Shown here: positions 33,909 through 46,027 of the stretch, piece by piece
How positions within the stretch are numbered: the stretch's first letter is position 1
Layout: each line of letters begins with the position of its first letter
Origin: Thermoproteota archaeon
GTDB lineage: Archaea; Korarchaeota; JAOZGF01; JAOZFZ01
NCBI GenBank assembly: GCA_027492035.1
Contig: JAOZFT010000001.1
Span: 1-64,000, forward strand
Direction of reading: 5' to 3'
Length of the DNA: 64,000 nt
The notes under the pieces: generated by a model
The model's database searches: none
Seen by the model: only the letters and a program-made list of their open reading frames with translations
What the model was told of the DNA's origin: nothing
Translations under genes and position numbers: made by a program

Positions 33909-35057
33909 GTGAAAATTAAACCTGGAAAATATTTCCTTCAAGGAAACATAGCCTTAGCTGAAGCAGCTATAAAAGCAGGTTGCCTGTTCTATGCAGGTTA
34001 CCCAATAACTCCCGCAAGTGAAATAATGGAACATATGGCTAAAAGGTTACCAGAGGAGAAAGGAGTGTTCATTCAAATGGAGGATGAAATAGCTTCAATA
34101 GCCGCTTGCATAGGGGCAAGCTGGGCTGGGGTTAAAGCAATGACAGCGACTTCAGGTCCAGGTTTTAGTTTAATGCAAGAAAACATAGGGTTAGCTGTGA
34201 TGACAGAAACTCCCTTAGTAATTGTGGATGTGCAAAGAACAGGGCCTAGCACAGGACAAGCAACAAAAGCGGCACAGGGAGATATTATGCAAACTAGGTG
34301 GGGGAGACATGGAGACCAGGAAGTGATTGTTTTAGCTCCAAACTCTGTTCAAGAAATGTTTAACTTAACAATTAAAGCTTTTAATTTAACTGAAAAATAT
34401 AGAACCCCGGTTATTGTGTTAGCTGACGAAGCAATTGCACATTTACATGAAAACTTGACAGTGAAGGAGGGTATAGAAGTATTTAATCGTGAGAAACCTA
34501 GAAAAAAAGAAAAAAGGTTTTTTGGGTGTGAAAAAAAGGATTGTGTCCCGCCGATGCCTTCAGTAGGCGAAGGATTTGATGTTTTAGTTACTGGTTCAAG
34601 CCATGACGAATACGGCGTAAGGTTTACAGCAAACCCTCAAGTTCATGAAAAACTCGTGAATAGACTTGTGAACAAAATAAGGTTGAGAAGGAAAGAAATA
34701 ATTGAAGCTGAAACATATATGGTTGATGAGTGTGAAATAGGGGTTGTAAGTATAGGTTGCGTCTCAAGAGCTGTTTATGAAGCTGTTGAATTAGCTGAAA
34801 AAGAAGGGTTTAGAGTAGGTTTCGTAAGACCTAAAACTGTTTGGCCTTTCCCTGAAGAACAAGTGGAGAAACTAGCCTCCAATGCAAACTTCATCTTGGT
34901 GCCTGAATTAAACACGGGGCAATTGATTAAAGAAGTTGAAAGGGTAACCGTAACCAAGAAAAAGGAGAAAGTGATACCTTTCAACAAAATAGGTGGGGGA
35001 AGAATGATTTCACCCACTGAAATATTGAAAGAAATAAAGAGGTTAAGCAGAAACTGA
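33909..35057 (+). CDS. korA: 2-oxoacid:ferredoxin oxidoreductase alpha subunit
   Basis: YAGYPITPASE, QMEDEIAS, TATSGPG, QRTGPSTG. Confidence 0.92.
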   Translation: MKIKPGKYFLQGNIALAEAAIKAGCLFYAGYPITPASEIMEHMAKRLPEEKGVFIQMEDEIASIAACIGASWAGVKAMTATSGPGFSLMQENIGLAVMTETPLVIVDVQRTGPSTGQATKAAQGDIMQTRWGRHGDQEVIVLAPNSVQEMFNLTIKAFNLTEKYRTPVIVLADEAIAHLHENLTVKEGIEVFNREKPRKKEKRFFGCEKKDCVPPMPSVGEGFDVLVTGSSHDEYGVRFTANPQVHEKLVNRLVNKIRLRRKEIIEAETYMVDECEIGVVSIGCVSRAVYEAVELAEKEGFRVGFVRPKTVWPFPEEQVEKLASNANFILVPELNTGQLIKEVERVTVTKKKEKVIPFNKIGGGRMISPTEILKEIKRLSRN

Positions 35058-35186: not shown

Positions 35187-35413
35187 ATGTCATTAACTAA
35201 AGTAACTCGAAACTATCAGGTGACTCTTCCTGCAGAAGTTAGGAGGACACTTGGCATCAAAGAAGGGGATTGCTTAGAGGTAAAAGTAGAAGATGGAAAC
35301 ATCGTTACGAGTAAATTGGAGAGAAAAAGGAAAAGGATTAAACTTGGAAAAAACTTACGTTAGAGGAGATTGAAAAAGAAATTGAAAGAGGGTTTACTGA
35401 ATGTATGCAGTGA
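35187..35413 (+). pseudogene. vapB: AbrB/MazE-type VapB antitoxin, frameshifted near the 3' end
   Basis: MSLTKVTRNYQVTLPAEVRRTLGIKEGD...LGKNLR* (stop 35361-63); another frame continues LEEIEKEIERGFTECMQ* to 35413, overlapping vapC. Confidence 0.8.
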
Positions 35414-35820
35414 TAGACACCAACATTTTAATCTATGACACCTTTGAAAACTCAGAAAAACATGAACCCGCTGAAAAACTACTGAATTCTTTGAGTAAGT
35501 GGCTGATTCCAGTTATGCCACTTTGCGAGTATATTTGGTTCTTTAAAAGGCAGAAGCTTGACACTTACGAAGTTAAAGGCCTTGTTGAAGGCTACATATT
35601 AGATCCTCACTGCAAAATTCATGTAGACAACGGAACTCGCTTAAAAAACGCTTTCGAAACTGTAGCATCTCAAAAACTCCCCTTAACACAGATCAAGGAC
35701 ATGGTGATACTTTCACATGCGAAACTTAGCAAAGCACCCTGGCAATCTTTGATTGGAAACTTAGGAGAAAAGCCATGGAACATAGGGTTAGAACAATACT
35801 TTAAGATGAAGCAAAACTAA
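35401..35820 (+). pseudogene. vapC: PIN-domain VapC toxin with frameshifted C-terminus
   Basis: VIDTNILIY, conserved E and D residues; frameshift at about 35738 hides the canonical end LAIFDWKLRRKAMEHRVRTIL* (stop 35802-04). Confidence 0.8.
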
Positions 35821-35825
35821 GGTTT

Positions 35826-36686
35826 TTGACAACTGGAAAAGGAAATGTGGAGATGAAGGGGAGATATTACTTAAGGAAGTTTTTAAGGGAGGAGCATTTA
35901 CCCACAAAATTCTGTCCAGGCTGCGGATTAGGCATTGTAATGAACCTATTCCTTAAAGCAGTTGATGAATCAGGGTATAAAGAGTTAAGTGGAAAGTTTG
36001 TTTTTGTTTCAGGAATTGGGTGTTCAGCCTGGATTCCGTCTCCATATTTTAAAGCGGACTCAATCCATGTTACACATGGACGAAGCATCCCTGTTGCAAC
36101 AGGTATAAAACTTGCTAAACCTGAATTGAAAGTTGTTGTTTTCGGTGGAGACGGAGACTTAGCTGGGATAGGTTTACATCACTTAATTTTTGCAGCACAT
36201 AGAAATGTTGAATTAACTGTTATAATGTGTAACAACATGACTTACGCCATGACAGGTGGACAAGCTGCACCCACAACTCCTTATGGAGTAAAAACGGTTA
36301 CCACCCCTTACGGAAAAATATCGAAAGAACTGGATATTTCAAAAATATTGGTGGATGCAGGTTCATCCTATGTTGCCAGGTGGACAACAGCCCACCCTAT
36401 CCAGTTAAAGAAATCCTTCAAAAAGGCTTTAGAAATAAACGGTTTCTCATTTGTAGAAGTTTATTCACAGTGTCCTACCCGTTTTGGGAAAGAACTAAAC
36501 ATGTTTAAACCTGTAGAAATGATGGAGTGGTTTAAAAGAAACAGTAAAGTTTTGAAGAAGGGGGAGACAATTGAAAATGGAGAAATGAAACTTGTTTTGG
36601 GTGAATTTGTCGAAAGAAAAAGACATGGATACTGTGAACTTTACTACAGAAATATTTTAGGGGAGGAGTTGGAAAAATGGAGATAA
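35826..36686 (+). CDS. korB: 2-oxoacid:ferredoxin oxidoreductase beta subunit
   Basis: FCPGCG, SGIGC, HGR, TPP motif GGDGD...NN, MTGGQ. Confidence 0.92.
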   Translation: MTTGKGNVEMKGRYYLRKFLREEHLPTKFCPGCGLGIVMNLFLKAVDESGYKELSGKFVFVSGIGCSAWIPSPYFKADSIHVTHGRSIPVATGIKLAKPELKVVVFGGDGDLAGIGLHHLIFAAHRNVELTVIMCNNMTYAMTGGQAAPTTPYGVKTVTTPYGKISKELDISKILVDAGSSYVARWTTAHPIQLKKSFKKALEINGFSFVEVYSQCPTRFGKELNMFKPVEMMEWFKRNSKVLKKGETIENGEMKLVLGEFVERKRHGYCELYYRNILGEELEKWR

Positions 36687-37249
36687 AGGATAAAATCCAA
36701 ATTGTAATTGAAGGAGTTGGAGGGCAAGGGATAATTTTTGCAGGTTATGTTTTAGCTTATTCAGCCTTCAAGTCAGGCTACTTTGTTGCCCAGTCAAAGG
36801 AATACGGTTCAGAATCGAGGGGCACAAGAGTAAAAAGTAAAGTAGTTGTTTCTAAAAAGGAAGTAAAGCATCCCTTCGTTGAACAATGCAACGTGTTAGC
36901 GGCGTTAACGGATCCCTCCATCGAAACCCTTAAAACTTTAACTCCAGAATCAAAAATCTTCTTAAACTCTTCCTTGATAAAGAAACAGTTACTTACAAAA
37001 TTTTCTGAAAAGACGGAAATTTATTTGATTCCAGCCACTGAACTTTCAAACAAAAAATTCTTAACCCCCCTATTTGCAAACATTATTTTGCTAGGTTACC
37101 TAATTAAAGGAACTGGTTTTTTAAGGTTTGAAACAGTGAAAAATGTTTTAAGAGAGGAGATAGGTGGGACTAGAAGTGAAGAAAACATTTCAGCCCTTGA
37201 AACCGGTTACTTTTATGAAGAAGAAAAGTTTGAGAGAGTTAAGGAATGA
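36677..37249 (+). CDS. korC: 2-oxoacid:ferredoxin oxidoreductase gamma subunit
   Basis: GVGGQG, YGSESRG, ANIILLG. Confidence 0.88.
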   Translation: MEIKDKIQIVIEGVGGQGIIFAGYVLAYSAFKSGYFVAQSKEYGSESRGTRVKSKVVVSKKEVKHPFVEQCNVLAALTDPSIETLKTLTPESKIFLNSSLIKKQLLTKFSEKTEIYLIPATELSNKKFLTPLFANIILLGYLIKGTGFLRFETVKNVLREEIGGTRSEENISALETGYFYEEEKFERVKE

Positions 37250-37491
37250 TTAAGAATTACAGGGTTAATTCAGGGAAGGGGAAAAGAACTATTTCCATCG
37301 ATGAAACCCTTTGCAAAGGATGCGGGATCTGTGTTTGGGTTTGCCCAAAAAAAGTTTTCACTTTCTCAAATAACCTCACTTCTCAAGGCTTCTATGTTGC
37401 TAAGGTACTTAACAAAAGGGAATGTTTAGGGTGCAGACTTTGTGAAATACAATGTCCAGACTTTTGCATAAATGTTTCTGAGTTATCATAA
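37246..37491 (+). CDS. korD: 2-oxoacid:ferredoxin oxidoreductase delta subunit (2x[4Fe-4S])
   Basis: CKGCGICVWVCP and CLGCRLCEIQCPD. Confidence 0.9.
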   Translation: MIKNYRVNSGKGKRTISIDETLCKGCGICVWVCPKKVFTFSNNLTSQGFYVAKVLNKRECLGCRLCEIQCPDFCINVSELS

Positions 37492-37583
37492 AAAGGGTTT
37501 TTCAGTAAGGAACTTTTCCTAAACCCTCAAAAAGTTTTTGTAGGGGTAATTTTTGCGACGCAACCTTCCTTTTAATGAAAAAA

Positions 37584-38201
37584 TCAAAACCCTTTATTTT
37601 CCAGCTTAAAAACATTTCTCCTAAGTAGTTCCTTATAAATTTTTAGGAAGAGTTTTTTCATTTTCTTGGCTGAAACCTTTATTTTCTTTTTTCCTTTTAA
37701 AGTTTTTGGGATGTTCCTTTCTTGTAGAAAGTTTACCAAGATTTTTTTGTTTTTGTTTTCCAAGTTAAGATGCTTTAATGCTTCTTCAGCTAATTGTTCC
37801 TCTGAGTAACCGCAGTACTGAAGCTCTTTCTCTGAATGTGTCAAGGTATAGTTTTCAACAAGTTCAAAAAAGATTTGTGTAAATACTTGGTTCGGTTCTA
37901 TTTTTCCGTAATAGTTTTTTAAGGCTGTAAATAAATCTTTTTTCGTTTTAAACCCATCTATTTTAGCGTCTTCATCCGTTATTTCATGTAAAGTTTTTGT
38001 CTTAACCTTTTTAATCTTTACTTTACCGATGAGTTTTCCATTGCAGTGAATATAGAGCACAGATCCCCTTTCCACTTTGATTTTTCCAAGTCTTAAGGTT
38101 GATTTCTTCTCCCCCGAAAGGATTTGCTGTTCGAAAACTTTGTCAAAGAATAAATGTTTAATTCTTTTCTTTTTATTCATCCCTTTCCTCCGTTTTTCCA
38201 T
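37584..38201 (-). CDS. ASCH-domain protein with C-terminal helical extension
   Basis: ILSGEKKSTLR (GxKxxTxR), ITDEDAKIDGF; likely ATG at 38180 overlapping the tmcA stop. Confidence 0.85.
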   Translation of the reverse strand: MEKRRKGMNKKKRIKHLFFDKVFEQQILSGEKKSTLRLGKIKVERGSVLYIHCNGKLIGKVKIKKVKTKTLHEITDEDAKIDGFKTKKDLFTALKNYYGKIEPNQVFTQIFFELVENYTLTHSEKELQYCGYSEEQLAEEALKHLNLENKNKKILVNFLQERNIPKTLKGKKKIKVSAKKMKKLFLKIYKELLRRNVFKLENKGF

Positions 38202-40548
38202 AGTAATAAGTGAACAATTTATTCAAAGATTCTTTTGAAATGTTTATTGTTTGCTTCTTGTTTAAACCAAGTGTTTTACTTGCTTTAATCCATCCTCTGC
38301 ATTGGAGAAACTTCACAATTAATGTTTTCTCTTCTAAACTTGTCAATCTAGGTTTTTCAGGTTCAAGGAAGTACTTAACAGCTAATGTTCTAGCTACATC
38401 GCTTACATACTCAAAAAAGATTACGTCACTTAAGTAGTTTCTTAACCTTAAAATTTCTTCTTCCGTTAAATTGATTGAGTAAGTTTGATTTTTTATTTTA
38501 AGTGTTGAGTGTAAGAGGTGCTGAGCCACGTCAGGGTTCATGTCGTAAAGTATTCCTGCAAGCCAACCCATGAACCTTTTCTTAAAATCTACACTTGAAA
38601 CCTGTATTATTTCTTTCATTTCATCCGTTAAGGGTTTAATTAGGCAAACTGAGTATTCCCCACTTATTGGGTTCTTTACAAGGGTTACATGTACAGGTTC
38701 GAATTTATTTTTCATCCAAAACTTCATCAACTCAGCTGACGCCCCGAATACTGAACCAATCCAGGACAACCCTTTCTCTTTAGCATGCTCCGTTATTTTT
38801 TTAAGTGCAAAACTCCCTATTCCTTTGTTCATTACTGCAGGGTGTGTAGCTATCCTGATTACCCTTAACCCTTTCTTAAAGGGGAAGATATAGCTTCTAT
38901 GATATTTCACCATTAAAGTAGGGATTATATGGCCTTGAGGGTCTTTCCCTCTCTTTATTTCTTCAATCATTCCATTGTTGAACTCTCCTTCGTAAGCAAC
39001 CTGTAAAGCGTTCACTATTTTATTGGTTTTCGTTTTAACGTACCATGCTTCATGGTGTGGAGCATCTGCCAAGAGAGCCGCATCACTTGGCCTGTTCCTG
39101 TAGTGGGCATAAACGTATATACCTATAAATTTTCTCAATTCCTTTTCTTTCACCAGAAACCATTTTTCTAGGTCTGCCTTTTCAAAAATTAATTCCCCTT
39201 TTTCTATACATTCTAAGTCCTTTTTTGTTATTTCGTCAGGTTCAGCATCTAAAAGGAGGGTGTCATAGAGCCATTTCTCAACCGGGTCGTTTCCACTGTA
39301 CCTTACAGGTTCCTTTAATTTAATTTCCTTCAAAGTTAAGTTCTTCGATTCCTTCAGTTTTTTTAGCAGCCTTATCGAGAATCCTCTACCTGCTCCTTCA
39401 TAGCCGTGAGTGGTGGAGGCTAAAACTACAAACTCACCCTTCCCTATTAATTCGTAAAGGATTGGTAAAGGAATCCCTGCAGCCTCGTCCACGACCAAAA
39501 TATCTGTTTTTGTTTTTATTTTTGGTGGAGGCAGGAAAGTTGCTTGTAAATTGCAACAGGAAATTTCCGTGATGCCTTCAGCCTCAGCACTTTTATTTAC
39601 TTCTTTGTACAGCCTCTTTAAACCAACTTCTAAAAATTTCATCAATATACTTGCATTTGATAATTCAGGAGCAGTTACAACTATTTCTCTCCTTTTTTTG
39701 TTTTTTATCAAGTAATCAATTAAACCGGCTAAGCTTAAACCTACAGCTGCGGATTTACCTCTTCCCCTGTCCGCTATAACAACTAATATTTTTTTGTTTC
39801 TGCTTTTACTCCTGAAAAGTTTATCTATGCTTTCAACAACTTTAACTTGGTCTTGGGTTAGACACAAAGTATAAATTCTCCTTGCAAAAACTATGTCGGT
39901 TGGAACCTTCACCCTCTTTTTTTCCCTTTTTTTTGAAAAACCCAATTCAAAGTCTTTAATTATTACTCCCCTATCAACGTCAACAATCATCACCCCCTTG
40001 TGTTCATGTAGTTTATTTATTACCCTTTTTTCGAACAAGGTTTTTACTTGTTCTAAAGTGTAGGGGTAGGTTACAAGTTTTTTATGGAATTTGTTTCTGT
40101 GGTTTTCCCATTTCTTGTAAGGTGGAGCCAAGAAAATAATTAATCCACCACCTCTTACAGTGCCTATTATCCTTCCTAAGTCGTCAGGGTTTGAGTTATG
40201 TACCAAGTTAATTATCAGTATATCTATTGTTTTACCCATGATTTTGAAGGTTTCAGGGAATGTTACAGGTTCAAAGTCGATTTTTTTAGTTGAAACAAGT
40301 TCTTTGAGAAACAGTTTGCAGTCTAGGTTTTCCGCTGGTTTTCCGGTTGAGGAGGTTACATAGAAAATTTTAACCTTTTTCTCTTCCCCCATTATTTTAA
40401 CAGCTTCAGCTGTTACTTTTCCAGCTAATTCTGCATTGACCCAGTTTTTACCGCATAAAACAATAAGTCTCCTATGGTTTGCTTCCTTTCCCGACTTAGA
40501 AGTTTTACGGATTCTTGAAAGCACAGTTTCAACCAGCTCCTCCTCCAA
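38173..40548 (-). CDS. tmcA: RNA cytidine N4-acetyltransferase TmcA/NAT10
   Basis: NHRRL, ADRGRGKSAA, VDEAA, STTHGYEGAGRGF, AHYRNRPSD, RIATHP...GIGS GNAT motif. Confidence 0.93.
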   Translation of the reverse strand: MEEELVETVLSRIRKTSKSGKEANHRRLIVLCGKNWVNAELAGKVTAEAVKIMGEEKKVKIFYVTSSTGKPAENLDCKLFLKELVSTKKIDFEPVTFPETFKIMGKTIDILIINLVHNSNPDDLGRIIGTVRGGGLIIFLAPPYKKWENHRNKFHKKLVTYPYTLEQVKTLFEKRVINKLHEHKGVMIVDVDRGVIIKDFELGFSKKREKKRVKVPTDIVFARRIYTLCLTQDQVKVVESIDKLFRSKSRNKKILVVIADRGRGKSAAVGLSLAGLIDYLIKNKKRREIVVTAPELSNASILMKFLEVGLKRLYKEVNKSAEAEGITEISCCNLQATFLPPPKIKTKTDILVVDEAAGIPLPILYELIGKGEFVVLASTTHGYEGAGRGFSIRLLKKLKESKNLTLKEIKLKEPVRYSGNDPVEKWLYDTLLLDAEPDEITKKDLECIEKGELIFEKADLEKWFLVKEKELRKFIGIYVYAHYRNRPSDAALLADAPHHEAWYVKTKTNKIVNALQVAYEGEFNNGMIEEIKRGKDPQGHIIPTLMVKYHRSYIFPFKKGLRVIRIATHPAVMNKGIGSFALKKITEHAKEKGLSWIGSVFGASAELMKFWMKNKFEPVHVTLVKNPISGEYSVCLIKPLTDEMKEIIQVSSVDFKKRFMGWLAGILYDMNPDVAQHLLHSTLKIKNQTYSINLTEEEILRLRNYLSDVIFFEYVSDVARTLAVKYFLEPEKPRLTSLEEKTLIVKFLQCRGWIKASKTLGLNKKQTINISKESLNKLFTYYYGKTEERDE

Positions 40549-40623
40549 AAAAGGTTCACCTTTTCCTTGAGAAGAAAAATTGAAGAATTAAAGGTTTTAA
40601 GAATTTTAAAAGGCTTTAAGAGC

Positions 40624-41502
40624 TTAGGGGAGGTATAAATAAGCTGCGTTTTCACCTACGTTGATTTTTAACGATTCAGCCACAGGTTTACATTTAGCTT
40701 TTAGAAGATAAAGGATTGGTTTGTTTATTTTCAGTTCAGGTAGGGTTTCGTAGTTAGCCATCCCTTTCGAAATTACCAGGTCTGATTCGTTAATTTCTTT
40801 CTTTAACTCGTTTAACTCGTTAAGGTTCATTATGCTGGAGAAGTCTTTATTTACTGGAAGAACCTTATTAACCACTTCCCCAAACCCCAACTTTCTTAAT
40901 TCATTAACTGTTACGTCGTTTTGGTAGGGGTTGAATTTAGCCACAGCCACTGTCTCCACATCAAAAATTTTCTTTATCTCCTTTAAAACTAATTTGTCAA
41001 ACACAGCCTCCCCTGCGTTATCAAGTAAATAAACAATTTTTTTGGATTTACTTAAAAGGTTGAAGGCTTTGTTTAAATCATTGATTCCGAAATTTTCCTT
41101 TTCCAGCTCCTTTTCAAGTTTCTTGAAACTGAAAGAGTAACCGGCGACGCCTGGATCTAAAGAATTGGCGTTTACAGAGTAAATAATTAATTTCTTCAGT
41201 TTTTCAATTGGTTTTTCATTTTCTAATTCGCTTTCTACTTTTCCAGCCAGGATTGAAGCTGCCTTATTTACTTCTTCTTTCATTTCACGGTAGGGGTCAC
41301 TGTCACCAAGCAACTCCTTAACCCTTTTAAAAACTATGCTTGCTACGTAAGTAACGGTTGTTTCTGTGTTTGAAAGTTCCAAAACCATACGGGAAATTTC
41401 TTTAACAGCAACGAACTTCTCTTTTTCCGGCAAATTTGAATTTAAAATTTCTTTTGTCCTAACTGAAATTAAACAAGGGATGCACCATGGCTTCAGTTTC
41501 AT
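40624..41502 (-). CDS. ARMT1/DUF89 damage-control phosphatase (subfamily I)
   Basis: C.PC N-terminus, DPY...K, DNAGE, NDVT, KGMANYE, KAKC. Confidence 0.9.
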   Translation of the reverse strand: MKLKPWCIPCLISVRTKEILNSNLPEKEKFVAVKEISRMVLELSNTETTVTYVASIVFKRVKELLGDSDPYREMKEEVNKAASILAGKVESELENEKPIEKLKKLIIYSVNANSLDPGVAGYSFSFKKLEKELEKENFGINDLNKAFNLLSKSKKIVYLLDNAGEAVFDKLVLKEIKKIFDVETVAVAKFNPYQNDVTVNELRKLGFGEVVNKVLPVNKDFSSIMNLNELNELKKEINESDLVISKGMANYETLPELKINKPILYLLKAKCKPVAESLKINVGENAAYLYLP

Positions 41503-41622
41503 TTTTCAATCAACCTACACGTATCAATTCTAAAAACTTTCCCCTTTCCCCAAACAATTAAAAAAGATATAAAAAATGAAAAACTTAAGAAAGATTTTTT
41601 TAATGCATCGGAGGAAGTTAAG

Positions 41623-41775
41623 ATGGATTTCAAAAGTAAGTGTCCACGCTGCGGAGCTAAAGCGGCTAAGCTTGGAAACCCAATCATTGCGGTGGGTAAG
41701 ACAAGAGGGTTAAGAATTAATGTTTTCAGATGTCCAGAGTGTAATCTAGTGTTTTATGAAGGTTTTGAAGAATAA
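41623..41775 (+). CDS. Small CPxCG zinc-ribbon protein (50 aa), not in the ORF track
   Basis: GGAGG SD; MDFKSKCPRCGAKAAKLGNPIIAVGKTRGLRINVFRCPECNLVFYEGFEE*; followed by a pyrimidine-rich tract. Confidence 0.75.
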   Translation: MDFKSKCPRCGAKAAKLGNPIIAVGKTRGLRINVFRCPECNLVFYEGFEE

Positions 41776-41866
41776 CTGAACCCCCTTTCCAACACCCCTT
41801 TTCTTTTTATTTCACATTTTTAATTTTTTATCCCCCTCTACTTTCCCTGTCTTTCTTCCGAAGAAC

Positions 41867-44773
41867 TTATATTTTAGTGAAGGAAAATTCCACTTTATCA
41901 TTCTCAAACTTTATGTTACCTGTTATTTCCCCTTTTAGTATGCCAAACTCTATTTTTTCAGCACTTACGTCACGTTTAAAGTCTTCAATGAGTTTCTTTA
42001 ACCCCTTCTCTAAGTCACTGGTTGTTTTAATCGTTAAGAGTATTTTGTCAAGCACTTTGAAACCATGTTTCTTTCTTGTAAGCTGGATTCTGCGTGTGAG
42101 TTCCCTATAAACCCTCTCACTTAAAATTTTATCGTCAACCGTTAAGTCAATAAACACCTCACCAAAAGAGAATTTCTCAGAAACAAAGCTTCCTTTAATT
42201 CTTTCTTTTCTAAACTCCACATCTTTTGCGTTGCTCATTTTGAGAAACACTTGCTTAAACCTGTTCAATGTTTTTTCCACTTGTTTTGACTCAGAAACCA
42301 CCACTACCTTTTTGACAGGCCACCTAAGTTTAACCTTTGCTTTCTGTCTAGCTGAGGAAACAGCTTCAATTATTTCCCTTAAAACCTCCATTTCCTCCTC
42401 TAATTCCTTATTTATGTGTTCTTTCTCCGGTTCAGGAATTAAGAGGAAATGAATCGACTCTTCTTCACAAACTTTACCTCTGAGTAGTTTTTGGTAGAGT
42501 TCTTCAGCCGTGAAGGGAGCAAATGGAGCCAGCAGCTTCAGTGTTTCTTCTGTTGTTTTGAGTAAGGTGTAGAAGGCTGCTTTTTTATCTTTTCCTTGAT
42601 AAAGAGGCCAAACTCTGTCTCTGACAGCTTTGATGTACCATCGAGATAAGTCGTTTAGGATGAAGTCCATGAGGAGTTTTGCTGCTTTAAAGTGGTTATA
42701 TTTTAAACAAGCTTCTCTGTATTCTTTAATTGTTGAATAAAGTTTAGAAAGCAACCATTTATCTTCAGGGAGCAAATCAACTTTTTCAGGAGGCTTCTCT
42801 GTTACATACATTTCTATAAAGTGGAAAGTATTCTTTAAAACATTAAATTGTCTACTGACTTCTTTAACTTCATCCATGTTGAAAAAGAAATTGTTCCAAG
42901 GGGCACTGGATAAAAGATAAAACCTTAAAATGTCTCTACCATATTTTTGAGTTACGTCTTCAGGTAAGATGACATTCCCCCTTTTCTTAGCCATTTTTAC
43001 TCCGTGTGCATCCAAAATGAAACCGTGAAACATTATTGTTCCAAAGGGGCTTCTTCCAAACGTTAACACACTGGTTATTAACTGAGAATTCCACCACCCC
43101 CTTATTTGGTCAGGGCCTTCAGTTTCGAAATCTGTAGGCCAAAGTTTCTTCCACAAGTCTTTCCTTTTAGGGTAACCTAGTGAGGCCCATGAAGCCACTC
43201 CTGAATCAAACCACACATCCAATACGTCAGGTATCCTGTACATAGTTCCTCCACATTTTGGACATTTCAGTTTCACCTGGTCGATGTAAGGCCTGTGAAG
43301 GTCTTTAAGCTCAACTCCCAATTCATCTGCAGACCCTACAACTTTTACTTCACCGCATTTTTCACAGATCCAAATGGGTAAAGGGATACCCCAATATCTT
43401 TGTCTTGAAATAGGCCAATCTCCTAGGTTTTCAATCCAGTTAAGGAATCTTTCTCCAGCCCATTTAGGAACCCAATTAACTTTTTTGCTTTCTTCAATTA
43501 ATTTATCCTTTATTTCTGTTACTTTAAAGAACCATTGAGGCATAGAAATTAAGAGGAGAGGGGATTCGCATCTCCAACAGTGAGGATACTCATGTTCAAT
43601 TTCCTCTTCTAAAAGCAAAAGCTTCCTTGACTTCAATTCATTAATTATTAACTTATCAGCTTCTTTAACGTACATGCCTGCAAATTTACCGCAAGATTCA
43701 TCGAAAACCCCGCTTATTTTAACAGGGGAAACAACTGGTAAACCTGTTTCTAAACCTACCTTGTAGTCTTCTTGGCCGTGTCCAGGTGCACTATGAACTA
43801 AGCCTGTACCTTCAGTTAAGGTAACGAATTGTTCAGATAAAACAACTCTATGAGCGTTTTTCAGTTTCTTTTGGAAAGGGAATAGGTCAGCTAAGGGGTG
43901 TTCATACCTTAACCCCCCTAAATCCCAGCCTTTAACTGTCCCTAACACTTCATAATTGTTGAAACCAAGTTTATCCAAAACAAAGCCAGCTAAAGCCTTG
44001 GCTAGAATAAAAACTTCACCTGTGGGAACTTTTACTTTAACGTATTCAGCACTTGGCTTCACCATTACGCCGGTGTTCCCAGGCAGAGTCCATGGAGTAG
44101 TTGTCCAAATGACTAAGAAAACATTTTTCTCTCCCTCAACTTTAAATTTGACATAAATAGCTGGATCTTTAACTGTTTTGTATTCTATTTCGTTGTAAGC
44201 GACAGCTGTTTCACAGCGGGGGCAAACATGAACTGGGTAGCTTCCTTTGAAAAGGTATCCTTTCTCATATGCAGCCTTAAAAGTTGTCCAGGCTCCTTCA
44301 ATGTAGTTATTGGTTAAAGTCAGGTAAGGATTATCCCAATCCATCCAAACCCCTAAGTTTTTGAACTGCTGCGTCATAACGTCAATGTATTGAGTTGCAA
44401 ATTTTCTGCATTCCTGAATAAAATTTTCAACACCGAATTTTTCAATGTCGCTTTTTACTTTGAAGTTAAGTTTCTTTTCAACTTTGTTCTCAATAGGTAA
44501 ACCGTGGCAATCATATCCTGGTTGATCCCAGACGTCGTAGTCCAGCATTCTGTGGAAGCGAATATAAAAATCTTTCAGGATCTTGTTTAAGGCTGTTCCT
44601 AAATGTATGGCTCCTGTTGCGTATGGAGGCCCGTCCATGAAAAACCATTTCTTTTTTCCTTTACGTAACTTTCTTGCTTTACTTAGGATGCTGTTCTCCT
44701 CCCAGAAATTCAGTATTCTTTCCTCCATTTTAGGTTGAGGCTCAAATTCCATGTAACCCGCCTTTCTTCCCAA
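41867..44773 (-). CDS. ileS: Isoleucine-tRNA ligase (archaeal/eukaryotic type)
   Basis: DGPPYATG.IHLGT, GYDCHGLPIE, WTTTPWTLP, DWPISRQRYWG, EGPDQ.RGW, KMAKK. Confidence 0.95.
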   Translation of the reverse strand: MGRKAGYMEFEPQPKMEERILNFWEENSILSKARKLRKGKKKWFFMDGPPYATGAIHLGTALNKILKDFYIRFHRMLDYDVWDQPGYDCHGLPIENKVEKKLNFKVKSDIEKFGVENFIQECRKFATQYIDVMTQQFKNLGVWMDWDNPYLTLTNNYIEGAWTTFKAAYEKGYLFKGSYPVHVCPRCETAVAYNEIEYKTVKDPAIYVKFKVEGEKNVFLVIWTTTPWTLPGNTGVMVKPSAEYVKVKVPTGEVFILAKALAGFVLDKLGFNNYEVLGTVKGWDLGGLRYEHPLADLFPFQKKLKNAHRVVLSEQFVTLTEGTGLVHSAPGHGQEDYKVGLETGLPVVSPVKISGVFDESCGKFAGMYVKEADKLIINELKSRKLLLLEEEIEHEYPHCWRCESPLLLISMPQWFFKVTEIKDKLIEESKKVNWVPKWAGERFLNWIENLGDWPISRQRYWGIPLPIWICEKCGEVKVVGSADELGVELKDLHRPYIDQVKLKCPKCGGTMYRIPDVLDVWFDSGVASWASLGYPKRKDLWKKLWPTDFETEGPDQIRGWWNSQLITSVLTFGRSPFGTIMFHGFILDAHGVKMAKKRGNVILPEDVTQKYGRDILRFYLLSSAPWNNFFFNMDEVKEVSRQFNVLKNTFHFIEMYVTEKPPEKVDLLPEDKWLLSKLYSTIKEYREACLKYNHFKAAKLLMDFILNDLSRWYIKAVRDRVWPLYQGKDKKAAFYTLLKTTEETLKLLAPFAPFTAEELYQKLLRGKVCEEESIHFLLIPEPEKEHINKELEEEMEVLREIIEAVSSARQKAKVKLRWPVKKVVVVSESKQVEKTLNRFKQVFLKMSNAKDVEFRKERIKGSFVSEKFSFGEVFIDLTVDDKILSERVYRELTRRIQLTRKKHGFKVLDKILLTIKTTSDLEKGLKKLIEDFKRDVSAEKIEFGILKGEITGNIKFENDKVEFSFTKI

Positions 44774-45403
44774 CTGTTGGTTTCCTTAAAAGATGTAGGA
44801 AGGGTGTAAAAGGAACCTTTCCCTTATTTTAAGAAATTTTTAAAGAATTTTTTAATGCAAAGATGTTTTGGATGGTTTCTTTATGTCCTGACTCTTTATT
44901 AAAAATTTAACTTTTTCGATAGGAGAAGATGCGAAGTTCTTTTGCAGAGGAAGTCTACAAGAGTTTAACAACTCATTAACAGCAAAGTTGTTTAAGAGTT
45001 AAGGAAAGAAAGTTAATTCCTTAATTGAAGGCCTCAAATAGAGCCTTTTGCTTAACGTTCAATAACCTTTTTAGCAAAAATATGAAACTTAGTTTTCTTT
45101 GCCATCGAGTTCTTCCTTGTCTCTATAACACTCCAAACAAGCGCAAGCAAGTTTTTACGCTTAAAAATTCATCAGTCTTTTTTATCAATAACTCTTAAAC
45201 CTAAAAAATGGTGAAACCTTTATTGAAGAGTTAAACTGAGGGAGATCCGGTCTAAAGAAAAACTGAGAGGATAGTAGTACAAAACTTTTCTTGTTTCTAT
45301 TTCTAATAAAGTTTTCTTACTTCTAAAAAACTTTATAGGGTGCTGAATTAGGAAAACAATAAATTTTCTAAGCTACAAAAATAAAGGTTTAGAGATGAAT
45401 TTT

Positions 45404-46027
45404 TCAGTGCTTCTTTATTTTTTCGCCTATTTTATAACCTACATTGAAAGCTTTAAGGTTTAACTCTTTGAAATCAACGGGGGTATTCTTTATTATTGCC
45501 TTTTCAACTGCTTCTTTATTTATTAAAGGGAAGAGTTTTGTGAAGACACCTAGAAGTAAAGTGTTAGCTACAAGTTTGTTTCCGAGTTCTTCAGCCAATT
45601 TAGTTGCATGAACAGGAACTTTTTCCACGTCACTCCTTTCTCCTTGATTAATTTGGACAAGGTCAGGGTCGTAAATTAGCACTCCGCCTTTCTTCAGTTT
45701 TGGCAAATACTTTTCATAGGCGAGTTTAGATAGAGCAATTAAAACATCTGACTCTGCTACTTTGACGAAATTTATTTCTTTCTCTGAAATGATTACTTCT
45801 GAGCTGGTGACTCCTCCACGTGAAGCTGGGCCGTATGATTGAGTTTGAACAGCTTCCTTCCCTCCATAAAGTGATGCAGCCATTCCTAGGATGATTCCCA
45901 TTTTCACTATTCCTTGACCGCCTAAGCCTGCAATTCTTATTCTAAATTCACTGACCCCCTTAGTGGTTCCTCCACTGTTTCGTTTATTCATTTTTAACAG
46001 TCCCCGAACAACTATACCTCTCTTCAA
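45404..46027 (-). CDS. korC: 2-oxoacid:ferredoxin oxidoreductase gamma subunit (second operon)
   Basis: AGLGGQG, QSYGPASRGG. Confidence 0.88.
   Translation of the reverse strand: MKRGIVVRGLLKMNKRNSGGTTKGVSEFRIRIAGLGGQGIVKMGIILGMAASLYGGKEAVQTQSYGPASRGGVTSSEVIISEKEINFVKVAESDVLIALSKLAYEKYLPKLKKGGVLIYDPDLVQINQGERSDVEKVPVHATKLAEELGNKLVANTLLLGVFTKLFPLINKEAVEKAIIKNTPVDFKELNLKAFNVGYKIGEKIKKH

Follow-up and report, generated by a model that had tools for sequence, protein, structure and literature searches.

The 64,000-nucleotide stretch of DNA analysed here, referred to as the window, comprises positions 1 to 64,000 of contig JAOZFT010000001.1 of a Thermoproteota archaeon (GenBank assembly GCA_027492035.1, GTDB lineage Korarchaeota). 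It contains tmcA, the gene for an RNA cytidine N4-acetyltransferase, and directly downstream of it a gene for a protein composed of an ASCH domain and a basic helical C-terminal domain. The two genes probably form a translationally coupled pair of a writer and a remover of N4-acetylcytidine (ac4C), in which the ASCH protein would be an amidohydrolase of the YqfB clade carrying an RNA-tethering tail, and the DUF89-type phosphatase gene upstream of tmcA would be unrelated to the pair. An original prediction, made from the DNA letters alone, proposed that the writer is co-expressed with a YqfB-type ASCH protein as eraser or reader, and added the phosphatase as a component of a possible ac4C salvage route. 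The pair is retained here, and the salvage role of the phosphatase is not.

The three genes are transcribed from the minus strand in the order DUF89, tmcA, ASCH. Open reading frames (ORFs) with the corresponding Pfam domains are present on this strand, in agreement with the three co-oriented genes described originally (Table 1). The ATG of the ASCH gene at position 38180 overlaps the end of tmcA by 8 nt, and a Shine-Dalgarno-like GGAGG is located 6 nt 5' of the ATG. The sequence of the junction is ...cGGAGGaaagggATGAATAA, in which GGAGG is followed by 6 bases and then by ATGAATAA. The overlap had been noticed before and had been taken to imply translational coupling, which is supported by the 8-nt overlap, read directly from the sequence. 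The pair is also conserved in evolution. An alternative start codon of the ASCH gene, ATG 38201, is present and results in a reading of 205 residues. The protein is taken to be formed of 198 residues because its homologues begin at the equivalent of ATG 38180.

Table 1 Positions of genes, protein domains and the coupling junction in the tmcA-ASCH region of the window
Feature	Position	Strand	Basis
DUF89/ARMT1-type metal-dependent phosphatase gene, 292 residues	40624..41502	-	Pfam PF01937 and NCBIfam
tmcA, RNA cytidine N4-acetyltransferase (TmcA/NAT10 family), 791 residues, TTG start	38173..40548	-	Pfam and NCBIfam
Two-domain ASCH-HTH (helix-turn-helix) gene, 198 residues, translationally coupled to tmcA	37584..38180	-	ORF, junction, lengths of homologues, structure model
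ASCH (PUA-like beta-barrel) domain, residues 8-110, with Lys25, Thr28, Arg30, Asp75 and Tyr91	37851..38159	-	Pfam, structure, alignment with YqfB
Basic helical domain at the C-terminus, residues 111-198, probably an archaeal ASCH-associated helix-turn-helix	37587..37850	-	Model and homologues
Coupling junction: GGAGG 38191-38187, ASCH ATG 38180-38178, tmcA TAA 38175-38173	38173..38191	-	Direct reading of the sequence

TmcA of the window has the features of the TmcA/NAT10 family. It contains an N-terminal domain (Pfam TmcA_N, E 2.3e-39), a helicase/ATPase domain with a Walker A motif (NAT10/TmcA helicase, E 1.5e-52) and a GNAT domain (GNAT_acetyltr_2, E 2.6e-36), together with a weak match to the Pfam family tRNA_bind_2. 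The Walker-type motif R-G-R-G-K, residues 261-265, is invariant in an alignment of 36 sequences. The score of the protein against the NCBIfam TmcA model is 471 bits (E 5.5e-141), which is below the haloarchaeal equivalog cut-off of 700.

The ASCH domain is recognized by Pfam (PF04266, E 8.5e-14, residues 18-116 of the 205-residue reading). A fold predicted from the single sequence was unusable, with a predicted local distance difference test (pLDDT) score of 43, and an alignment-based fold was used instead. The underlying alignment contains 64 sequences: the window protein, 61 proteins of two-domain length picked from the 150 representative matches listed, and two ORFs from tmcA loci. The resulting model of the 198-residue protein has a pLDDT of 95 and a predicted template-modelling score of 0.87. 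The structure most similar to its ASCH domain is that of Escherichia coli YqfB (9kyf_A), with a Z-score of 15.3 and a root-mean-square deviation of 1.5 Å for 97 of 102 residues aligned in a search independent of Foldseek. The next-best ASCH structures have a Z-score of 12.1, three units below YqfB. Chains of YqfB, including the complex with ac4C (9KYH), are also the top three Foldseek matches in the PDB, with E-values of 2.3e-7 to 3.5e-7 and target TM-scores of 0.86–0.87. The comparison of a predicted structure with YqfB, which had been put forward as a check of the original prediction, thus identifies YqfB as the best match by two methods.

A search of PDB sequences with the ASCH protein returned chance matches only, the best of which, to filovirus nucleoproteins, has an E-value of 0.3. 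A word-index protein search found only the window's own protein, and was replaced by an exhaustive search of representative proteins. The alignment of the family profile with E. coli YqfB, taken from the annotated E. coli K-12 record, has an hhalign probability of 96.2 % and an E-value of 2.4e-9, and the two proteins share approximately 23 % of identical residues.

The active-site residues of YqfB can be located in the window protein. The octapeptide G23-E-K25-K-S-T28-L-R30 (GEKKSTLR) fits the motif GxKxxT/SxR, and the segment AKIDGF is also present. In the alignment, Lys25 corresponds to Lys21 of YqfB, Thr28 to Thr24, Arg30 to Arg26, Asp75 to Glu74, Tyr91 to Tyr89, and Asp71 to His70. The retention of the lysine, threonine and arginine and the presence of an aspartate at the position of the glutamate, both read previously from the sequence, are borne out by this mapping. 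The window protein shares with YqfB (PDB 9KYF/9KYH, 1TE7; PMC6972931) the fold, the Lys/Thr/Arg of GxKxxTxR, an acidic residue at the position of Glu74, and the tyrosine equivalent to Tyr89. The YqfB variants K21A, T24A and R26A are reported to be inactive, and E74A about 1000-fold slower (PMC6972931). Among the 64 two-domain sequences Arg30 is invariant, and Gly23, Lys25, Thr28, Gly76 and Tyr91 are at least 90 % conserved. An aspartate at position 75 is the consensus of the family (DGF). The two proteins differ in that the one from the window has a basic tail added to the ASCH domain, and E. coli yqfB is positioned between trhA and bglA, whereas the window gene is coupled to tmcA.

The tail is formed of 88 residues, of which 22 are lysines or arginines and 10 aspartates or glutamates, and has an isoelectric point of 9.9. 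In the model it contains four helices, formed by residues 127-137, 142-154, 157-162 and 171-187. It corresponds to the additional basic helical domain of about 90 residues that was recognized originally. No Pfam family matches the tail at E ≤ 0.01. The corresponding C-terminal domains of 63 two-domain homologues can be aligned to it. At E ≤ 1e-3 the exhaustive representative search identified 308 proteins; in many of those that are 175-205 residues long, the match extends over residues 8 to about 190 of the query. The family profile matches genomes of Archaeoglobaceae and Thermococcus over positions 5-192 of its 194 positions, with E-values of 6e-60 to 5e-70. The two-domain ORFs have 179-180 residues in two Archaeoglobaceae genomes, and 189-194 residues in two Thermococcus genomes, each of which contains two copies. 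Named members of the family include proteins of Archaeoglobus profundus (179 residues) and Pyrococcus abyssi (191 residues). As judged from sequence comparison, the tail is not peculiar to the lineage of the window and belongs to a widespread archaeal two-domain family.

Two features of individual ASCH homologues were observed during the searches. The matches to the second two-domain paralogue in the Thermococcus genomes G043 and G044 (loci L112 and L113) each span one in-frame TAG, and the ORFs have 190 and 194 residues. In the representative protein P0116, of 556 residues, residues 459-553 form a YqfB-like ASCH domain, which is fused to an N-terminal part of 455 residues that has no Pfam match.

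Functions of the two domains have been reported for archaeal homologues. According to the preprint of Statkeviciute et al. (bioRxiv 10.64898/2026.02.27.708502), ac4C is removed from tRNA in vitro by each of the 19 ASCH proteins assayed. The HTH domain that accompanies ASCH in archaeal proteins is named AAAD_HTH in this preprint and is likened to LysR-type HTH domains. In the proteins Afu3ASCH (tail residues 100-177) and Pku4ASCH (tail residues 104-190), which are of the GKTR type, the tail is described as necessary and sufficient for the binding of tRNA, and dispensable for catalysis. The window protein resembles Afu3ASCH, Pku4ASCH and Pku2ASCH in the combination of a GKTR-type ASCH domain with a helical tail of 80-90 residues that belongs to no Pfam family. 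These three assayed proteins were compared with it by their published description; in sequence alignments it matches, over its full length, two-domain proteins of Archaeoglobus, Pyrococcus and Thermococcus. The reported tRNA binding lends support, by analogy, to the earlier proposal that the basic extension may direct the ASCH protein to RNA. The position of the gene is a point of difference, since none of the six two-domain copies in four genomes of Archaeoglobaceae and Thermococcus has tmcA within flanks of 1.5 kb, whereas the window copy is coupled to it.

The genomic association of tmcA with ASCH genes was surveyed in 80 tmcA loci from named archaeal metagenome-assembled genomes and genomes. 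The loci were fetched with an alignment of the C-terminal halves of TmcA, with flanks of up to 6 kb per side, and ASCH genes were detected with a hidden Markov model (HMM) built from 15 seeds. An ASCH ORF on the same strand, starting between -127 and +44 nt from the tmcA stop, is present at 29 of the 80 loci. Three of the 29 loci are cut by a contig end; the other 26 are found among 74 loci whose downstream sequence extends to 330 nt or more. All 29 ORFs pass the Pfam cut-off for ASCH. The pair is found in loci labelled Bathyarchaeia, Nezhaarchaeota, Methanomethylicota, Thermoproteota/Nitrososphaerota, Aenigmatarchaeota, Micrarchaeota, Baldrarchaeota, Mnemosynella, Scotarchaeum and Archaeoglobaceae (two of six). 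It was not found in those of the 80 loci that are labelled Thermococcus/Thermococci, Thermofilaceae, Pyrodictiaceae, Desulfurococcales, Vulcanisaeta, Nanobdella or Methanodesulfokora. At locus L022 a two-domain ASCH gene is positioned 1.9 kb downstream of tmcA, and at L082 an ASCH gene lies 4 kb away on the other strand.

The genome of the window was also compared with 40 relatives, among which one belongs to the same family (G001), one to the same order (G002), and the others to the same phylum. Fragments of TmcA from these phylum-level relatives are most similar to records labelled Thermoproteota or Nitrososphaerota, a broad grouping to which the deep-branching archaeon of the window belongs. 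Both genes were found in 30 of the 40 relatives and are adjacent in 13 of these, which represent six genera. In genus g4 the genes are adjacent in none of the 17 genomes with both: a distance of 811 kb separates them in the single-contig genome G005, and in the other genomes they are located on different contigs. All four genomes of genus g8 contain tmcA, and no ASCH gene was found in them with the window ASCH query. Within one phylum, the link between tmcA and ASCH has been kept in six genera and lost in genus g4, where the ASCH gene is located elsewhere. The survey, which had been proposed with the original prediction, shows that the pair is not confined to the window genome. Recurrence in many lineages puts the adjacency of tmcA and ASCH far outside what chance would produce.

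The arrangement corresponds to the operon of tmcA/Nat10 with a YqfB-clade ASCH gene stated in a preprint of August 2026 (bioRxiv 10.64898/2026.08.01.741249), in which an ASCH gene of the same clade is described directly downstream of tmcA. The present survey confirms this pair. The window differs from most of these loci in the form of the partner. In 28 of the 29 adjacent loci the protein encoded next to tmcA has a single domain and about 100-140 residues, and the exception is the two-domain protein of 208 residues at the Baldrarchaeota locus L071. Two-domain partners are also encoded in the window, in its family-level relative, and in its order-level relative, whose ORF is truncated by a contig end beyond the start of the tail. 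One Archaeoglobaceae genome contains both forms, a short copy linked to tmcA and a two-domain copy elsewhere. The window genome, which is 93 % complete, has a single ASCH gene.

A tree of ASCH domains (197 rows, 103 columns) was calculated by a quick method, leaving out P0001, P0002, representatives of fewer than 95 or more than 260 residues, duplicate loci, and ORFs cut by contig ends. The window protein groups with those of its family-level and order-level relatives (Shimodaira-Hasegawa-like approximate likelihood ratio test 88). Its neighbours in the tree are mostly two-domain forms, and the short ASCH proteins linked to tmcA in the phylum relatives are placed elsewhere. Of the 192 inner branches of the tree, 97 are unresolved, and because of this poor resolution the tree does not distinguish gain of the tail in place from replacement of the partner.

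A mechanism that accommodates the observed gene order, overlap, conservation of the pair, fold, conserved residues and domain architecture can be proposed. The tmcA and ASCH genes would be expressed as a bicistronic, translationally coupled pair. TmcA would acetylate N4 of cytidine in RNA using ATP and acetyl-CoA, and the ASCH protein, as an amidohydrolase of the YqfB clade, would remove the N4-acetyl group of ac4C. Lys25 may serve as the base, Thr28 as the nucleophile, and Asp75 as the acid, with Arg30 forming the oxyanion hole and Tyr91 positioning the substrate. The basic C-terminal HTH domain would tether the ASCH protein to tRNA or other RNA. Producing the two proteins together may link the means of removing ac4C to the means of making it. 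The target of removal may be RNA, RNA that is accessible or degraded, or free ac4C originating from turnover. Hydrolysis of ac4C and binding of tRNA by the tail are known from homologues, and by analogy the window protein would have the same activities; its amidohydrolase activity is highly probable. The odds for its physiological substrate are split roughly evenly among intact RNA, accessible or decaying RNA, and free ac4C.

Several observations weigh against this mechanism. Asp71 and Asp75 replace His70 and Glu74 of YqfB. The score of the ASCH protein against the NCBIfam equivalog model of YqfB, NF003443 (PRK04980), is 19.1 bits, compared with a cut-off of 93. The NCBIfam rule does not class it as an equivalog of the enterobacterial YqfB, and its relatedness to the clade rests on the motif and the structure. 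The likeness of the tail to HTH folds is weak. In a search with the model of the whole protein, the tail has weak matches to the sigma-region-4-like HTH domains of 1xsv (Z 5.4), WhiA (3hyi, Z 5.0) and region 4 of SigA (6ono, Z 4.5). The motif GSIRxAAxxLG, which is conserved in the tails of the homologues, is degenerate in the window protein (RNIPKTLKGKK), and its binding of RNA may therefore be less strong or less specific. If a writer and an eraser produced in a fixed ratio acted on the same RNA sites, they would constitute a futile cycle. In E. coli lacking yqfB, the ac4C content of tRNA is reported to be unchanged (10.64898/2026.02.27.708502). Human EOLA1 is reported to deacetylate free ac4C and unstructured RNA, and not structured cellular RNA (10.64898/2026.08.01.741249).

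EOLA1, described in the latter preprint, is similar to the window protein in having the ASCH fold, the lysine and arginine of the octapeptide and ac4C as a substrate, and it offers a nucleotide-salvage logic for a remover that accompanies a writer. It differs in belonging to another clade, the TRIP4-like ASCH proteins, in having a glutamate in place of the threonine of the motif, and in having no tail. Its structure (5y7d) is a distant match to that of the window protein, with a Foldseek E-value of 3e-3. The two 2026 preprints point in different ways on the physiological substrate.

The start and stop codons overlap at many tmcA-ASCH junctions of other archaeal loci, and such recurrent overlap would favour equimolar synthesis of the two proteins. 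It is conceivable, although unlikely, that the ASCH-HTH protein is bound to TmcA at a fixed stoichiometry and recruits or selects tRNA for TmcA, or proofreads off-target acetylation in a complex of writer and eraser, instead of being a free-standing salvage enzyme. THUMPD1 and Tan1 serve as tRNA adaptors of NAT10 and Kre33. The PUA-like fold is a common RNA-binding module, and the PUA domains of TruB and Cbf5 match the model of the ASCH protein with Z-scores of about 5. The window genome provides only one ASCH gene, and the tail of its homologues binds tRNA (10.64898/2026.02.27.708502). Nevertheless, the catalytic residues are conserved throughout the family, which would be needless for a purely structural adaptor, and the single-domain partners that prevail next to tmcA have no RNA-binding tail. 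Furthermore, a Pfam scan of seven longer representative matches found a TmcA domain, and hence a fusion of TmcA and ASCH, in none of them, although no homologue search was aimed at longer proteins. A more specific form of this idea is a stoichiometric complex of writer and eraser, in which the tail would recruit tRNA for TmcA and the ASCH domain would trim off-target or excess acetylation, so that the protein acts as a proofreading subunit or as an adaptor similar to THUMPD1. Such a complex could form because the sole ASCH gene of the genome is HTH-bearing and coupled to tmcA, and it is slightly less likely than the general case.

An HTH domain could also bind DNA, and the ASCH domain could sense ac4C or cytidine and thereby control the operon or other genes. 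The weak resemblance of the tail to the DNA-binding HTH folds of sigma region 4 and WhiA type is compatible with such a regulator, as are its published comparison with LysR-type HTH domains and the weak binding of both tRNA and DNA reported for Pku2ASCH (10.64898/2026.02.27.708502). However, Afu3ASCH and Pku4ASCH bound tRNA with no detectable binding to the DNA substrates tested, according to the same preprint. The catalytic residues are conserved, and the ASCH gene is the last of its unit and convergent with the oxidoreductase operon on its downstream side. A regulatory function is very improbable, and the coupled pair of writer and remover remains the preferred reading.

The DUF89 gene is separated from tmcA by an AT-rich gap of 75 nt. 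Phosphatases of DUF89 subfamily I have been reported to act on nucleotides. The ORF matches the Pfam family ARMT1/DUF89 over its whole length (E 1.4e-52), and scores 143-149 bits against NCBIfam damage-control phosphatase models with cut-offs of 440-500. DUF89 proteins of Pyrococcus (PDB 2G8L) and Archaeoglobus are placed in subfamily I (PMC9062747). The window gene is similar to them in matching the ARMT1/DUF89 Pfam family and the archaeal NCBIfam models; it differs in scoring below both curated equivalog cut-offs and in having no conserved link to tmcA or ASCH. No DUF89 gene was found at any of the 80 tmcA loci (phmmer, E ≤ 1e-5; four-seed HMM, E ≤ 0.01). DUF89 and tmcA are both present in 33 of the 40 relatives, and are adjacent in none of them. 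They are located on different contigs in 30 genomes, and 86, 118 and 151 kb apart in G005, G007 and G019, respectively. In the order-level relative G002, the 1.5 kb downstream of DUF89 do not contain tmcA, and in the family-level relative G001, which is 94 % complete, no DUF89 gene was found with the window DUF89 query. Among the genomes examined, adjacency of DUF89 and tmcA is confined to the window genome, an outcome that the original prediction had itself named as refuting and that applies here to the DUF89 part. DUF89 is an unrelated neighbour and not a conserved part of the tmcA-ASCH module.

The original prediction envisaged a route from ac4C monophosphate (ac4CMP) through ac4C to cytidine, in which DUF89 would produce ac4C, the ASCH protein would produce cytidine, and all would be co-expressed with tmcA. 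The shared strand and the short gap are in line with this salvage module, and a divergent small ORF parts the three genes from the isoleucyl-tRNA synthetase (IleRS) gene, so that DUF89 could head a transcription unit; the AT-rich gap could hold a promoter of tmcA. The idea is not supported because the adjacency of DUF89 does not recur, and a three-gene salvage module, which is highly unlikely, is already largely refuted by this lack of conservation.

The reading of the locus as a writer and eraser, and the operon itself, are not new, as they are stated in the two 2026 preprints (10.64898/2026.02.27.708502 and 10.64898/2026.08.01.741249). The main text of neither preprint mentions DUF89, and that of the former contains no discussion of gene neighbourhoods. 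The locus opens no new question, since the activity of the family, the binding of tRNA by the tail, and the operon are all contained in these preprints.

The surroundings of the three genes are as follows. The ASCH gene is convergent with a four-gene cluster for a 2-oxoacid:ferredoxin oxidoreductase on its downstream side. On the other side, an ORF of 50 residues is located on the plus strand between DUF89 and IleRS (41623-41775). It contains two CxxC pairs (CPRC ... CPEC) and probably encodes a zinc-ribbon protein, the Pfam zinc-ribbon matches being below threshold. This ORF and DUF89 point away from each other, this ORF and IleRS towards each other, and it overlaps a probably spurious minus-strand ORF of 62 residues. 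The IleRS gene was considered as a member of the unit and was ruled out by this ORF on the opposite strand. A PIN-domain gene (35401-35820, plus strand; PF01850, E 1.1e-10) is positioned between the genes for the alpha (33909-35057) and beta (35826-36686) subunits of the oxidoreductase. It resembles a VapC-type insertion within the oxidoreductase operon, and the gap of 343 nt preceding it could hold a small antitoxin gene. An Rfam scan of positions 36000-46000 found no family at its gathering score. The G+C content is 32-41 % across the 2-kb windows of the profile.

The RNA of archaea contains more ac4C than that of other organisms, and the ways in which the modification is removed or recycled are only now becoming clear. 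This single neighbourhood is no ground for including the DUF89 phosphatase in models of ac4C salvage. The locus is a further example, from a deep-branching and poorly sampled archaeal lineage, of tmcA joined to the gene of a YqfB-type remover, and it indicates that the RNA-binding two-domain form of ASCH proteins can occupy the position of the tmcA partner.

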